From the sequence record PZ445554.1: DNA of 64,000 nucleotides; one strand, 5' to 3'. The translations under genes were made by a program, and so were the position numbers. Below the pieces are notes generated by a model. That model did no database searches, was not told the DNA's origin, and was given only the letters and a program-made list of their open reading frames with translations. The first letter of the stretch is position 1, and each line of letters begins with the position of its first letter. Of the stretch, positions 9,395 to 14,649 are shown in pieces. This stretch comes from a phage.

Positions 9395-10399
9395 TTAGCT
9401 CACCAACTCAATCCAAGCTGGACGAAGTACATCTTGTACCATTTTAACTAATTCCTTTTTAATCAAAGAAGGATTATCTGCTTGAGTTAGAGTAATACCT
9501 TCACGAGAAGTTTCTTCCAAAATATCTTGAACAGTTAGCCCCATCACCTTTCCAAAATCCTTTGGACCAATTTCGCCAATTTTAGAAATAACGTTATTTA
9601 CCCGGTTCAGTGTAACGTAACAAGCTAAAATTCCCACCAATTTGTTATCAGCTTCTGATAGTTCAACTTTAGCTTTAATAGGCTTATCAGACTTTTTCTT
9701 TTCACTAAATTTGGAATTCTTGCATTTAATTGCTACACGATTTCCATTACGAAGCCAAGAAGGATAACAAGGTTTCAATACATATCCTTCAGCGGTAAAT
9801 ACTTCGCCTTTTGCTTCGGCATTCCAAACGCATTTATTTGCATCAACTAATCCAGCATGGTCTACTGTAAAATTATAATCTTGGATGACAGAATCTAAAT
9901 CATTTGGCAATTTAATAAGCTCTTCAAATTTACCGCGACCTAAAAGTGGAGCCATTTTAAATTTAAATGTATTGCAGAATGATTCCATCATATAATCGTC
10001 GACATAAGTCACATCGCCGCTTTCTGTAGTGACAATAATGTCAAATACATAAAAATCTTTATCGCCATAATCGACATTCTTCTGAATGCCAGGTCCAGCG
10101 AATTCGCCAAAGACTTGGTAAGATACAACTGCTGAAGTTTCCATAATATCTTGTACTGCTTTAATGGAATCAGCGTAATTCTTTAAAATAATTTCATACC
10201 CAAAGAAATCTTCAGCAGGAAGAATAGGACCAGTACGTTTAGCGCAAGTTACTTTATCACGCTCAATAATCAATGAGAAATTTGTACCATGAATCTTTTC
10301 ACGAGCTACCCACTCCCCACCAGTCAATCCCAAGCTATAAAGTTTTTCAATAAATTTAGAGTTGTAATGATTTTCAAGACTGCTATACTTTTTAAACAT
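9395..10399 (-). CDS. rnlB: RNA ligase 2 (Rnl2)
   Basis: 334-aa ORF, N-terminus [16 protein letters not shown] with KxHGxN ligase motif (EKIHGTN); T4 synteny. Confidence 0.93.
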
Positions 10400-10408
10400 A
10401 ATTAATCC

Positions 10409-10687
10409 TCAAAATGTAATTTCTAACCAATCACCATCACGCTGATCACTATTGACTTTAAAGCTGAATCCTTCTTTTCTCAGCCAATCACCAATTTCTT
10501 CAGTAATCAATTTATCACGAGCAGTACAATAATAACTAAAATATGTTTTACCTTGTTCAGCTGCTTTATTAGCAAGTTCCGAAAAATCTTTAATAAAACA
10601 CTCTAGCTTAAACTGTTTACTTTTGAATGCTTTTTCACGCAATTGATTAGCAAAAGATTCATTTTCATAAAGATCATACTGTTCCAT
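10409..10687 (-). CDS. hypothetical protein (T4 24.2 position)
   Basis: 92-aa ORF, ATG start, synteny. Confidence 0.7.
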   Translation of the reverse strand: MEQYDLYENESFANQLREKAFKSKQFKLECFIKDFSELANKAAEQGKTYFSYYCTARDKLITEEIGDWLRKEGFSFKVNSDQRDGDWLEITF

Positions 10688-10889
10688 TTTTCACCTTTTT
10701 ATTGATATGTCTTTTTCTATAGACGACTTTTTCTCGAGTTTCAAATTTATTCTTAGCAGTCATAGCTCGAGCCCATAATACAGCCACTTCTTTTGCCTGT
10801 AAGTTTAATTCACGAGCAATTTCAATGAATGACTTTCCAGACTCATGAAGAGTAAACACCACAACCTCAGTTCTCATAATCAATCTCAT
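10674..10889 (-). CDS. hypothetical small basic protein with possible HTH (T4 24.3 position)
   Basis: 71-aa ORF; segment ESGKSFIEIARELNLQAKEV resembles a helix-turn-helix; start ambiguous (ATG at 10889 or 10877). Confidence 0.6.
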   Translation of the reverse strand: MRLIMRTEVVVFTLHESGKSFIEIARELNLQAKEVAVLWARAMTAKNKFETREKVVYRKRHINKKVKNGTV

Positions 10890-10956
10890 GTTATCGAGTT
10901 GGTGCCATTATATACATCATTTTCTGATTGTGTTTTGTGTGCTTTTAAAATGAAGA

Positions 10957-10978: not shown

Positions 10979-12397
10979 TTATGGATAGGTATAGATGATA
11001 CCAGTTTCTAAAGCAGTTTTATGAATGATGTATCCATTACGTGATTCTTGGACATCAACTTCTGGATAGTCTTTCATCATCTTCTGAAGAGTGTAACGAT
11101 GCAGGTAGTATTTACTATCTGGATCTTCAGTTTTCCAATCTTTACCTTCTTCAGTCATTTTTTGGATTTCATCCATAACCCACCAACCGCACCAGATGTA
11201 AGCTGAGCTACGGTGTGGAAGAGGATGAACATAAGGTAATTCACCTTCTGGTTCCGGAGCAACTTTATCAGTCACTTGAACTTGACCTTCTGCCGTAATA
11301 GTTTTGCTATCATAATCAGCAGCAGTAACAGTTGCAGTAACTTCAATAGTTTGACTTCCAATAGATGAGGTATCAACGGTATATACATTAGTTGACCCTT
11401 CTACAGGAGAAGAATCTTTCTTCCATGAATACGCAATTTGCGCTTCTTCTGGAGCATCAGTGACATTAGCGGTAAATGTAGCCGAAGCATCTTGCTGCAC
11501 GTTAATAGAAGGAGGAGTCAATGTAACCTGTGGATTCATTGTCTTTTTATTAACAGTCAGTGACACTTCATTAGAAGTAACTTCTTTTGCATCATAATCT
11601 GTTGCGGTTACTTGGGCTACGCATTTAATTCTTTTTACTCCACTTGTAGTTGGAGTATAGCTAAATGTAGAGTTAGTTTCTCCACCAACTTGTGAATCAT
11701 CTACATACCACTGATACGTAGCAGACGCTCCAACTGGTTGAGAAGCTAAGGCAGCAGTAAATTGAACTGGGGTTCCAATTACTCCAGCTGAAGGACTATC
11801 AGGAGTTACTGCCAAAGTAGTTGTCTGTGTCTTTTTATTAACAGTCAGTGACACTTCATTAGAAGTAACTTCTTTTGCATCATAATCTGTTGCGGTTACT
11901 TGAGCCACACACTTAATTGTTTTAACTCCGCTTGTGGTAGGAGTGTAATTGAATGTAGCAGAAGTTGCTTCGACCACAGGAGAACCGTCAACGTGCCATT
12001 GATACGTAGCAGATGCGCCAGGTGGCTGCGAATCTAAGGCAGCGGTAAATTCAACAGCTGTTCCGATTACTCCTTCCGGAGGACTATTAGGAGTTACAGC
12101 TAAGGTAGTCGTTTGTGTCTTATTTTGAACTGTGATAGTTGTAGTAGCTTCTGCTGTTTCAGCATCAGTATCTGGAACTGTATTTGTTGCAACTACTTTA
12201 ATAGTCTTTTGACCGGCAGGTCCTTTTAATACATAATCAAAAGTTGCTTCAGCTCCATCTTGTGGAGCATCATCTACAGTCCAAGCATATGTAATAGTTC
12301 CGCCTCCAGTTTCACCACTGGGTGTAGCAGTAAACTGCTTAGTTTCATCAATAACCCCTGTTGGTGTTTTAGGAGTTATATCAACTGTAAAAGTCAT
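10979..12397 (-). CDS. hoc: Hoc outer capsid decoration protein with four Ig-like domains
   Basis: 472-aa ORF; N-terminus MTFTVDITPKTPTGVIDETKQF and C-terminal capsid-binding region recognised as Hoc; internal 288-bp tandem repeat. Confidence 0.9.
   Translation of the reverse strand: MTFTVDITPKTPTGVIDETKQFTATPSGETGGGTITYAWTVDDAPQDGAEATFDYVLKGPAGQKTIKVVATNTVPDTDAETAEATTTITVQNKTQTTTLAVTPNSPPEGVIGTAVEFTAALDSQPPGASATYQWHVDGSPVVEATSATFNYTPTTSGVKTIKCVAQVTATDYDAKEVTSNEVSLTVNKKTQTTTLAVTPDSPSAGVIGTPVQFTAALASQPVGASATYQWYVDDSQVGGETNSTFSYTPTTSGVKRIKCVAQVTATDYDAKEVTSNEVSLTVNKKTMNPQVTLTPPSINVQQDASATFTANVTDAPEEAQIAYSWKKDSSPVEGSTNVYTVDTSSIGSQTIEVTATVTAADYDSKTITAEGQVQVTDKVAPEPEGELPYVHPLPHRSSAYIWCGWWVMDEIQKMTEEGKDWKTEDPDSKYYLHRYTLQKMMKDYPEVDVQESRNGYIIHKTALETGIIYTYP
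11541..12116 (-). repeat. tandem 288-bp (96-codon) duplication inside hoc, encoding two Ig-like domains
   Basis: Units start at 11541 and 11829; first ~73 bp identical, remainder ~75-80% identical; a more diverged third unit follows. Confidence 0.85.
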
Positions 12398-12406
12398 AAG
12401 TTATCC

Positions 12407-13087
12407 TTATTTTAATGTTACGAAAGAAGAGTTGCGTGTTTCACGAATTAAAACTGATCCGTCACGGTTAATGTAATAAATTAAGCTAAATAAAGTTTGG
12501 TGTGCTGACGCATGTTCAAAACTAGTTGGGTGAGATTTCCAATCAGGAGTTTCAGCAATCCATTGATAAATCCACCAAGGAACAGTACAGAATCCTGGAT
12601 TTTTTCCAATCAACTGAAGATTCGGGCTAAAGTTTTCCGGAAGAGTAAATACAGACGGCTTTTCAGATTCAATAATCTCAGCTACAGCCTGTTCAAATTT
12701 TTCTTCAACAAATGGAGTATCTTCAATCAAAACATCGGTATTTTCAGGAATTTTGTCTGTTTCTACTACTTCAATTTTAATGTCAGATTTAACCGGAGAA
12801 TCAATCAAAAGTGCTGCTTCTGGATTGACTTCTTCATCGTCATATTTTAACCCCTCTGCAGCATCAGCAGCATCAATTAAGTCTTTAATAGATAACCCAT
12901 CAGTCTCCGGCATAGGTTCACTAGCGAGCTTCTGGAGGGCTTCTTCAATATCAACAACGATATTATCAAAAGATTTATTCTTTTTGACCTTTATACCAAA
13001 CTGTTCAGCATATTCAGCTAATTTAGCTTTAGCTTCTTTGTTATCATCAAGAGCCTTCAGCTCTGCAATATAATCTTTATCTATCAT
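12407..13087 (-). CDS. inh: Inh, inhibitor of prohead protease
   Basis: 226-aa acidic ORF, GAGGAAA SD; T4 synteny between hoc and uvsW. Confidence 0.8.
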   Translation of the reverse strand: MIDKDYIAELKALDDNKEAKAKLAEYAEQFGIKVKKNKSFDNIVVDIEEALQKLASEPMPETDGLSIKDLIDAADAAEGLKYDDEEVNPEAALLIDSPVKSDIKIEVVETDKIPENTDVLIEDTPFVEEKFEQAVAEIIESEKPSVFTLPENFSPNLQLIGKNPGFCTVPWWIYQWIAETPDWKSHPTSFEHASAHQTLFSLIYYINRDGSVLIRETRNSSFVTLK

Positions 13088-13100
13088 AATATTTCCTCAG

Positions 13101-13108
13101 TATAAATA
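13101..13108 (+). promoter_or_regulatory. late promoter TATAAATA (uvsW)
   Basis: exact TATAAATA 30 nt before uvsW ATG. Confidence 0.75.
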
Positions 13109-13137
13109 TAGATATATTTATTACATGGTATTTAGAC

Positions 13138-14649
13138 ATGACTGACATTAAAGTACATTTTTATGATTTTAGTCACGTGAGAATTGATTGTGAAGAAAGT
13201 ACATTTCATGAACTCCGTGATTTCTTTAGCTTTGAAGCTGATGGGTATCGTTTTAATCCGAAATACAAATATGGCCACTGGGATGGACGAATCCGTCTTT
13301 TAGATTATAATCGCCTTCTTCCATTCGGCTTAGTCGGGCAAATTAAAAAGTTCTGTGATAACTTTGGCTATAAAGCCTGGATTGACCCCCAAATTAACGA
13401 AAAAGAAGAATTATCAAGAAAAGATTTTGATGAATGGCTTTCTAAATTAGAAATCTATTCAGGAAATAAAAGAATTGAACCACACTGGTATCAAAAAGAT
13501 GCAGTGTTTGAAGGATTAGTTAATCGTCGTAGAATTCTTAATCTTCCAACATCCGCTGGTAAATCGTTAATTCAAGCTTTGCTTGCGCGATATTATTTGG
13601 AAAATTATGAAGGTAAAATTCTTATCATTGTTCCAACAACTGCTCTGACAACTCAGATGGCTGATGACTTTGTTGATTATCGTCTATTCAGTCATGCAAT
13701 GATAAAGAAAATTGGTGGCGGAGCATCAAAAGATGATAAATATAAAAATGATGCACCAGTCGTTGTTGGTACATGGCAAACTGTAGTTAAACAACCAAAA
13801 GAATGGTTCTCACAGTTTGGAATGATGATGAATGATGAATGCCATCTTGCTACAGGAAAAAGTATTTCATCTATCATATCAGGTTTAAATAACTGCATGT
13901 TCAAATTCGGTTTGTCTGGTTCATTACGTGATGGCAAAGCCAATATCATGCAGTATGTTGGAATGTTTGGTGAAATATTTAAACCAGTAACGACTTCTAA
14001 ATTAATGGAAGATGGACAAGTAACTGAGCTAAAAATTAATAGTATTTTTCTTCGCTATCCCGATGAGTTCACTACTAAATTAAAGGGAAAAACTTATCAA
14101 GAAGAAATAAAAATTATTACTGGGCTTAGTAAAAGAAATAAATGGATCGCTAAATTAGCTATTAAGCTTGCGCAAAAAGATGAAAACGCTTTTGTCATGT
14201 TTAAACATGTATCGCACGGTAAAGCTATTTTCGATTTAATTAAAAATGAATACGATAAAGTTTATTACGTATCAGGGGAAGTTGATACCGAAACCCGCAA
14301 TATAATGAAAACTTTAGCCGAAAATGGTAAAGGAATAATTATAGTAGCTAGTTATGGTGTATTTTCTACTGGTATTTCAGTTAAAAATCTGCATCACATT
14401 GTTTTAGCGCACGGTGTTAAATCAAAAATTATTGTATTACAAACAATCGGTCGTGTATTACGTAAGCATGGTTCTAAAACAATCGCAACGGTCTGGGACC
14501 TCATAGATGATTGTGGTGTTAAGCCAAAATCTACTAATACGAAAAAGAAATATGTTCATTTGAACTATCTTTTAAAACATGGCATTGATCGTATTCAGCG
14601 TTACGCAGATGAAAAATTTAATTACGTAATGAAAACAGTTAATTTATAA
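13138..14649 (+). CDS. uvsW: UvsW RNA-DNA and DNA-DNA helicase
   Basis: 503-aa ORF with helicase motifs (PTSAGKS Walker A, DECH box); late promoter TATAAATA 30 nt upstream. Confidence 0.95.
   Translation: MTDIKVHFYDFSHVRIDCEESTFHELRDFFSFEADGYRFNPKYKYGHWDGRIRLLDYNRLLPFGLVGQIKKFCDNFGYKAWIDPQINEKEELSRKDFDEWLSKLEIYSGNKRIEPHWYQKDAVFEGLVNRRRILNLPTSAGKSLIQALLARYYLENYEGKILIIVPTTALTTQMADDFVDYRLFSHAMIKKIGGGASKDDKYKNDAPVVVGTWQTVVKQPKEWFSQFGMMMNDECHLATGKSISSIISGLNNCMFKFGLSGSLRDGKANIMQYVGMFGEIFKPVTTSKLMEDGQVTELKINSIFLRYPDEFTTKLKGKTYQEEIKIITGLSKRNKWIAKLAIKLAQKDENAFVMFKHVSHGKAIFDLIKNEYDKVYYVSGEVDTETRNIMKTLAENGKGIIIVASYGVFSTGISVKNLHHIVLAHGVKSKIIVLQTIGRVLRKHGSKTIATVWDLIDDCGVKPKSTNTKKKYVHLNYLLKHGIDRIQRYADEKFNYVMKTVNL

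Follow-up and report, generated by a model that had tools for sequence, protein, structure and literature searches.

The hoc locus

The DNA analysed here, referred to as the window, is a stretch of 64,000 nucleotides from a phage (PZ445554.1). On the minus strand, positions 10979-12397 form a single open reading frame of 472 aa. The neighbouring reading frames are inh (12407-13087), 24.3 (10674-10889), 24.2 (10409-10687) and rnlB (9395-10399). The order inh-hoc-24.3-24.2-rnlB is identical to that of phage T4, i.e., this is a T4-type locus. A phmmer search finds the T4 Hoc chain 5vf3_Z as PDB match with an E-value of 7.5e-222, and residues 189-472 of the window protein align with residues 93-376 of T4 Hoc (NP_049793, 376 aa; PDB 5vf3, 8t1x, 8t9r).

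On mature capsids of the T4 type, every gp23* hexamer has a single Hoc copy in its middle. In T4, Hoc is anchored at the centres of the capsid hexamers by its C-terminal domain, and the string of Ig-like domains points outward. The capsid contacts are Y293, H295, R300, W309, W310 and the ESRNG loop 355-359 (PMC10385173). The window Hoc's domain for capsid binding at the C-terminus, aa 377-472 plus the stop codon (10979-11269, minus strand), aligns with T4 residues 281-376. All contact residues are present at an offset of 96 positions, Y389, H391, R396, W405, W406 and the loop E451-S-R-N-G455 corresponding to T4 Y293, H295, R300, W309, W310 and E355-S-R-N-G359, and they are invariant in the alignment of relatives. 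The 472 aa reading frame is hoc, with one Ig-like module more than T4 Hoc. A sequence-only reading of this DNA had named it hoc, 472 aa long and with four Ig-like modules, and the reading frame, the match to T4 Hoc and the structural model described below agree on this. The size which it gave for T4 Hoc was likewise right: T4 hoc has 1131 bp, encodes 376 aa and possesses a single middle module.

Two peculiarities of the surroundings may be mentioned. Between inh (minus strand) and uvsW (13138-14649, plus strand) lie only about 50 bp (13088-13137). In T4 the homing endonuclease gene segE is located between these two genes, and the window has no segE there. The uvsW reading frame of the window has 503 aa compared to 587 aa annotated in NC_000866. 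In the intergenic region between hoc and 24.3, at about 10920-10927 (gene +1471 to +1478), five differences from Shigella phage SHFML-11 are crowded into 8 nt, in surroundings which are otherwise about 99% identical to this phage. This cluster downstream of hoc might stem from the replacement of a small patch or from a multi-nucleotide change.

Domain composition of the window Hoc

In gene orientation the protein consists of Ig-like domain 1, two modules designated A and B, Ig-like domain 3 and the capsid-binding domain. Ig-like domain 1 (aa 1-94, 12116-12397, minus strand) is a predicted β-sandwich with pLDDT values of 85-94 and aligns with T4 domain 1. Module A (aa 95-190, 11828-12115, minus strand) is the upstream unit of a tandem repeat and is absent from T4. 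Module B (aa 191-286, 11540-11827, minus strand) is the downstream repeat unit and orthologous to domain 2 of T4 Hoc. Ig-like domain 3 (aa 287-376, 11270-11539, minus strand), again a β-sandwich in the model, aligns with T4 domain 3. Thus, T4 Hoc, which lacks module A, has three Ig-like domains compared to four in the window protein.

An AlphaFold model of the window Hoc, generated with 26 relatives, shows four β-sandwich modules in residues 1-376 with a pLDDT of about 90, which form a string of Ig-like domains. Confidence is lower for the C-terminal domain. In a Foldseek search of the PDB with this model, four-Ig fragments from Sidekick, Dscam1 and ICAM-5 rank highest, with E-values of about 1e-14 to 1e-13. 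Pfam PKD matches the protein with 32.8 bits, above its cut-off of 23.5 bits. The matches of Ig_3, I-set and PKD_4 are below their respective cut-offs, those of Ig_3 and I-set being located at residues 289-373. With the model and the fold search, the presence of four Ig-like domains in the window Hoc is confirmed.

The 288-bp tandem repeat

Modules A and B are encoded by a direct tandem repeat of 288 bp (11540-11827 and 11828-12115). Two tools report 2.0 copies and an identity of 81-82%; the TRF score is 796. Each unit is an in-frame module of 96 codons. The identity is distributed unevenly. At the plus-strand start of both copies 75 nt are 100% identical, compared to 74.6% over the 213 nt which follow. 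Read in the direction of the gene, this tract forms the 3' end, or tail, of the two modules, i.e., gene nt 496-570 in module A (11828-11902, minus strand) and gene nt 784-858 in module B (11540-11614, minus strand). When the 54 differences between the units were permuted, none of 200,000 permutations yielded an identical run of 75 nt. The result was again 0 of 200,000 when the permutation was limited to the 132 sites which are polymorphic among all modules. The sequence-only reading had spotted the repeat and its length correctly and was one base off in its starts (11541 and 11829 instead of 11540 and 11828). It put the identical stretch at about 73 bp and the remainder at about 75-80% identity, close to the 75 nt and 74.6% reported here.

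The four-module gene is widespread

A megablast search of 50,697 phage records with the window hoc yielded 657 matching records, nearly all of them Tequatrovirus. For a census of three- and four-module genes, 60 rows were taken at even steps down the ranking of the 657 matches, and representatives of clusters at 90% identity were used in addition. The sampled matches fall into two lengths, about 1419 bp and about 1131 bp. Among the 54 informative records about 21 carry a four-module and about 33 a three-module hoc, i.e., about 40% are of the four-module type. In a protein collection the relatives have 376, 472 or 568 aa, exact steps of 96 aa, and several clusters of 472-aa proteins comprise dozens and up to 167 member sequences. 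The window reading frame is an ordinary hoc of a widespread A-B four-Ig class in Tequatrovirus.

The best matches are Shigella phage SHFML-11 (NC_030953) and Salmonella phage vB_Sen_BCPSen_003 (PV368562), both 98.2% identical over the full 1419 bp. Both possess the same A-B four-module gene. Their module A is 99-100% identical to that of the window (99.1% for the A body of SHFML-11, the body being the module without its tail), and their B body is 98.6% identical. The Escherichia phages UGKSEcP1 and UGKSEcP2 and related metagenomic contigs have a Hoc of 568 aa in which A is followed by B as in the window; an extra module of a type C comes after B, which results in five Ig-like domains.

Hoc proteins beyond this circle follow the same plan. 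Strings of Ig-like domains occur in 650 Hoc homologs, with a maximum of 10 domains in Serratia phage Muldoon, and these domains differ greatly even among closely related phages of the T4 family (PMC10385173). Hoc of phage PNJ-9 is one Ig domain short (PMC11853027). The PNJ-9 and Muldoon proteins are more distant from the window Hoc, yet share with it a conserved C-terminal capsid anchor combined with a variable number of Ig-like domains.

Several related records show irregularities in the hoc reading frame. SHFML-11, BCPSen_003 and PST have GGGGG at hoc codon 13 (locus nt ~336-341) where the window (about 12357-12361), T4 and RB14 have GGGG. Because this constitutes a +1 frameshift, the three records annotate a 309-aa hoc starting from an internal ATG; the window gene is intact. 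The gene is dispensable, and the frameshift may reflect either a true hoc-null variant or an error in sequencing the homopolymer. In T6 (NC_054907) hoc is split into two CDS at gene nt ~480 by an extra base in an A-run (AAAAAGAAT versus AAAAA-AAT in RB14). Shigella phage SSE1 (MK639187), classed as Mosigvirus JS09, carries at the start of its record (1-300) the 3' part of a Tequatrovirus-like hoc which shares 97% identity with the window across 180 nt. This suggests either an exchange of hoc between genera or a misclassified record.

Modules A and B are old

The sequence-only reading took the repeat for a recent duplication within the gene. Such a duplication in the window lineage, with copies which diverged rapidly except for the tail or which are being homogenised at present, would account for a repeat which is tandem, exactly in frame and contains a perfect stretch of 75 nt, and T4 has only one copy. 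The comparison of modules across phages gives a different picture. Modules of 288 nt were taken from 25 and later from 31 alleles; all of them are in register and free of indels. In a neighbour-joining tree of the module bodies every first-position module falls into a clade A with a bootstrap value of 99. This clade also takes in the single modules of RB14 and of the IMG/VR contig IMG_L005. The T4-like B modules, including module B of the window, form a separate group, clade B. The last modules of A-C and A-B-C genes represent the third type, C. Accordingly, the single module of T4 is 94.8% identical to the B body of the window and only 75.6% identical to its A body. The two copies in the window are not each other's closest relatives, and the nearest relatives carry both of them: SHFML-11 and BCPSen_003 possess the same array with equally diverged bodies (75.6% identity between A and B), as do hundreds of records. 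An array of this kind in the closest relatives is what the sequence-only reading itself had named as the finding that would speak against it.

The synonymous divergence leads to the same conclusion. Between the A and B bodies dS is 1.13-1.31, i.e., synonymous sites are saturated, and dN is 0.14. Between alleles dS has a median of 0.23 and a maximum of 0.45 for Ig1, and a median of 0.31 and a maximum of 0.54 for Ig3. The dS between A and B is several times that between alleles, therefore the split of A and B goes back several times further than the diversity sampled in the genus and came before the sampled hoc alleles of Tequatrovirus diversified. Both modules are under purifying selection. The A-B array arose either by a duplication within a genome or by unequal recombination of diverged single-module alleles; it is old either way. 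The view of a recent duplication in the window lineage has to be abandoned: next to the separate clades and the saturated dS, the tails of the nearest relatives are only 81% identical, so that the identity in the window is a derived state. We regard this explanation as scarcely tenable.

A probable conversion patch in the tail of module B

What is recent is the tail. The window differs from SHFML-11 and BCPSen_003 at 26 positions within the gene, and 14 of these are located at gene nt 792-852; elsewhere the difference is about 0.9%. On both sides the flanks of this patch are SHFML-11-like with about 99% identity. The B tail of the window encodes TATDYDAKE. In SHFML-11 and BCPSen_003 the B tail reads AENYNEKE, the commonest type of B tail, with the 14 differences in 61 nt, and in T4 the tail of the middle module is of a DYDALS type. 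The A tails of the window, SHFML-11 and BCPSen_003 have one and the same sequence, which is also that of the B tail of the window. In numbers, the window B tail has 0 mismatches in 75 against its own A tail, 3 against the B-context tail of SSE1, and 14 against the B tail of SHFML-11 (81% identity). Among the other sampled alleles no B-context tail has fewer than the 3 mismatches of SSE1. The three signs of a gene conversion are all found: raised identity compared with the flanks, incongruence with the orthologous modules, and an identical donor in the same genome, with no better one among the sampled alleles. The polarity is from A to B, and it is module B which departs from its orthologs.

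In the nearest relatives the A and B tails are 81% identical, thus the identity over 75 nt is a derived state and no remnant. It is most simply read as the result of a short, recent and non-reciprocal copying of the A tail (11828-11902) onto the B tail (11540-11614) after the split from SHFML-11-like phages. The minimum converted tract is gene nt 792-852 (11546-11606, minus strand), and the tract length is 61-75 nt. The idea of a gene conversion, also raised in the sequence-only reading, is borne out by the clustering of 14 of 26 differences and by the match of 75 out of 75 nt to the own A tail. We infer that the donor was the resident module A rather than a foreign allele, and a recombination machinery of the T4 type probably made the patch.

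The converted patch appears to be private to the window lineage. The exact window Hoc protein was not found in a collection of 15 billion proteins. Among phage records the best match to the converted junction is 97.2%, and the exact junction string of 60 nt has no match in IMG/VR or in JGI metagenomes. In 32 other pairs of modules from one gene the tails never exceed 95% identity; the values range from 67 to 95%, and the longest identical run is at most 44 nt (14-44 nt in the relatives, 20 nt in the SHFML-11-like gene). Three Hoc proteins with identical tails of 25 aa (P0001, P0006, P0044) and one with a single difference (P0020) were considered as further fresh conversions and dismissed. Their tails are 87-95% identical in DNA sequence, which points to older homogenisation or to shared tail types.

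At the protein level, four residues in the F-G loop of module B would be altered by the conversion. For domain 2 of PNJ-9 Hoc, S183, L184 and T185 were reported to be critical for binding of MUC2, and a mutant in A165-Y172 retained MUC2 binding (PMC11853027). The converted tract, aa 166-190 of a module, takes in both A165-Y172 and N180-T185 of PNJ-9. A link between the tract and the MUC2 site was considered and dropped: S183, L184 and T185 are the same in every module, and MUC2 is still bound by the A165-Y172 mutant, therefore no functional change is claimed.

Other origins of the identical tail

T4-type phages recombine freely in co-infections. The tail of module B might thus have been replaced by that of a foreign hoc allele during a mixed infection, and in the family as a whole tail types are indeed shuffled among module types, TATDYDA tails being found on B-type modules in 15 homolog clusters. 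The tails of SSE1, ESH35 and UFV-AREG1 come within 3-5 mismatches of that of the window (SSE1, 96%). Yet among the sampled alleles a match of 75 out of 75 exists exclusively in the A tails of the window, SHFML-11 and BCPSen_003, and the donor resides 288 bp away on the same molecule. Further, the sequence which borders the patch on either side has stayed SHFML-11-like. We consider an import to be improbable, yet it is the likeliest of the alternatives. Even less can be said for an artefact of assembly, in which a short-read graph was mis-threaded across the repeats or two co-cultured phages were mixed. Repeats of this kind trouble assemblers, homopolymer frameshifts occur in hoc of several related records, and KNP5 (NC_055713) has a gap of 990 N over the same region. 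This gap, at 533-1522, begins where Ig1 ends and runs up to the last module; it shows that the hoc repeat region is hard to assemble; it also disposes of the 2072-bp hoc match of KNP5 as a candidate for a longer array or an insertion. The window gene, however, has exactly 1419 bp, is in frame, and both distinct module bodies are intact. Mis-threading would leave reads of a true AENYNEKE tail unplaced, and the patch ends inside a homologous region, which is how a true conversion tract would behave. An artefact is therefore very unlikely.

Finally, the identity of the 75 nt might be maintained by selection at the nucleotide level, e.g., by an RNA structure or a regulatory signal which is needed twice. 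Beyond the identity itself nothing speaks in favor of this. None of the other 32 pairs of modules from one gene, among them the pairs of the nearest relatives, shows this identity, therefore it is not a conserved feature, and the probability of such a selection is close to nil. With these alternatives weighed, we consider it highly probable that the window carries an ordinary A-B four-Ig hoc with old paralogous modules in a recombining array, which has received one fresh patch from the tail of A in the tail of B.

Shuffling of modules across the family

A crude motif classifier applied to 120 homolog clusters shows that Hoc proteins of 376, 472 and 568 aa contain one, two and three middle modules, respectively. 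Those of 376 aa have one A, B or C module; T4 has only B, RB14 only A. Those of 472 aa are chiefly A-B (23 clusters), with some A-C (3 clusters), and those of 568 aa are chiefly A-B-C. When modules were painted at the 17 sites which separate A from B, hybrids became visible. The module of UFV-AREG1 turns from A to B about two thirds along its length; in bov9_1, KNP5 and IMG_L003 the change from A to B occurs near the start of the module. Hybrids of this kind are to be expected after unequal crossing-over of the A and B modules in a parent with four modules. Small A patches within B modules are present in PST, YOKO, ABZCBI and UGKSEcP1. In some alleles the B and C tails are about 95% identical on bodies of about 75% identity, which suggests an older homogenisation.

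The alleles of 376, 472 and 568 aa together with the A/B hybrids characterize hoc as a recombining module array of variable copy number. Thus, the unequal recombination which the sequence-only reading had suspected is active in this gene family. A variable number of Ig domains in Hoc is already known. We found no description in the literature of an A/B/C module series or of intragenic conversion in Tequatrovirus hoc. The series and the exchange of modules are a comparative detail and do not constitute a new kind of system.

Proposed mechanism and implications

We propose that the tandem module array serves as a substrate for homologous recombination. Unequal crossovers would alter the number of modules and leave A-to-B hybrids, and short non-reciprocal exchanges would deposit patches. 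In the window lineage the last 61-75 nt of A would have been copied onto B. This patch would have swapped an AENYNEKE-type F-G loop for TATDYDAKE and created the perfect repeat. The extra module probably lengthens the Hoc fibre by one Ig domain, about 45 Å; the four-domain Hoc fibre of T4 measures 180 Å (PMC10385173).

The patch may have consequences for the stability of the gene. Singer et al. reportedly observed in 1982 that recombination in T4 requires about 50 bp of homology. The perfect repeat of 75 bp exceeds this length, therefore losses and gains of a module should come about more easily in the window allele than in its relatives, in which the longest identical runs measure 14-44 nt. 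Repeat-mediated instability is to be expected where long identical tracts occur, as in the window allele.

One can carry the argument further. In Tequatrovirus the middle of hoc may be a recombination-driven cassette array in which the old module types A, B and C are kept in a fixed order and in one to three copies, with the tails (the 3' 75 nt, encoding the F-G hairpin) as preferred site of exchange, so that phage populations would continually vary fibre length and loops; the window would then have been caught just after such an event. We put this forward as a speculation which is rather unlikely to hold in full. If it were true, it would by analogy resemble the variation of adhesins and antigens by repeat recombination, and the 75-bp repeat would make the window unusually prone to a next change in copy number.

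For the window itself these considerations matter little. Its gene belongs, as an ordinary representative, to a Hoc class which is annotated in hundreds of phage genomes. The implications concern the genus. The three-Ig Hoc of T4, which is the reference in work on display and mucus adherence, is one of several architectures, and module number and loop content are reshuffled via repeat recombination. In the engineering of Hoc for display and in comparisons of mucus binding by T4-like therapeutic phages the architecture, A, B, A-B, A-C or A-B-C, should be checked beforehand.

A change in the number of Ig-like modules is also seen in a distant T4-like lineage (IMG/VR contigs L006, L007, L008 and L012), where hoc has two, three or four Ig modules with lengths of 281, 376 and 470-471 aa. 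In the four-module genes of this lineage an Ig3-type module (KKTMSGVSVTLTP...) is tandemly duplicated. This duplication is independent and involves another module.
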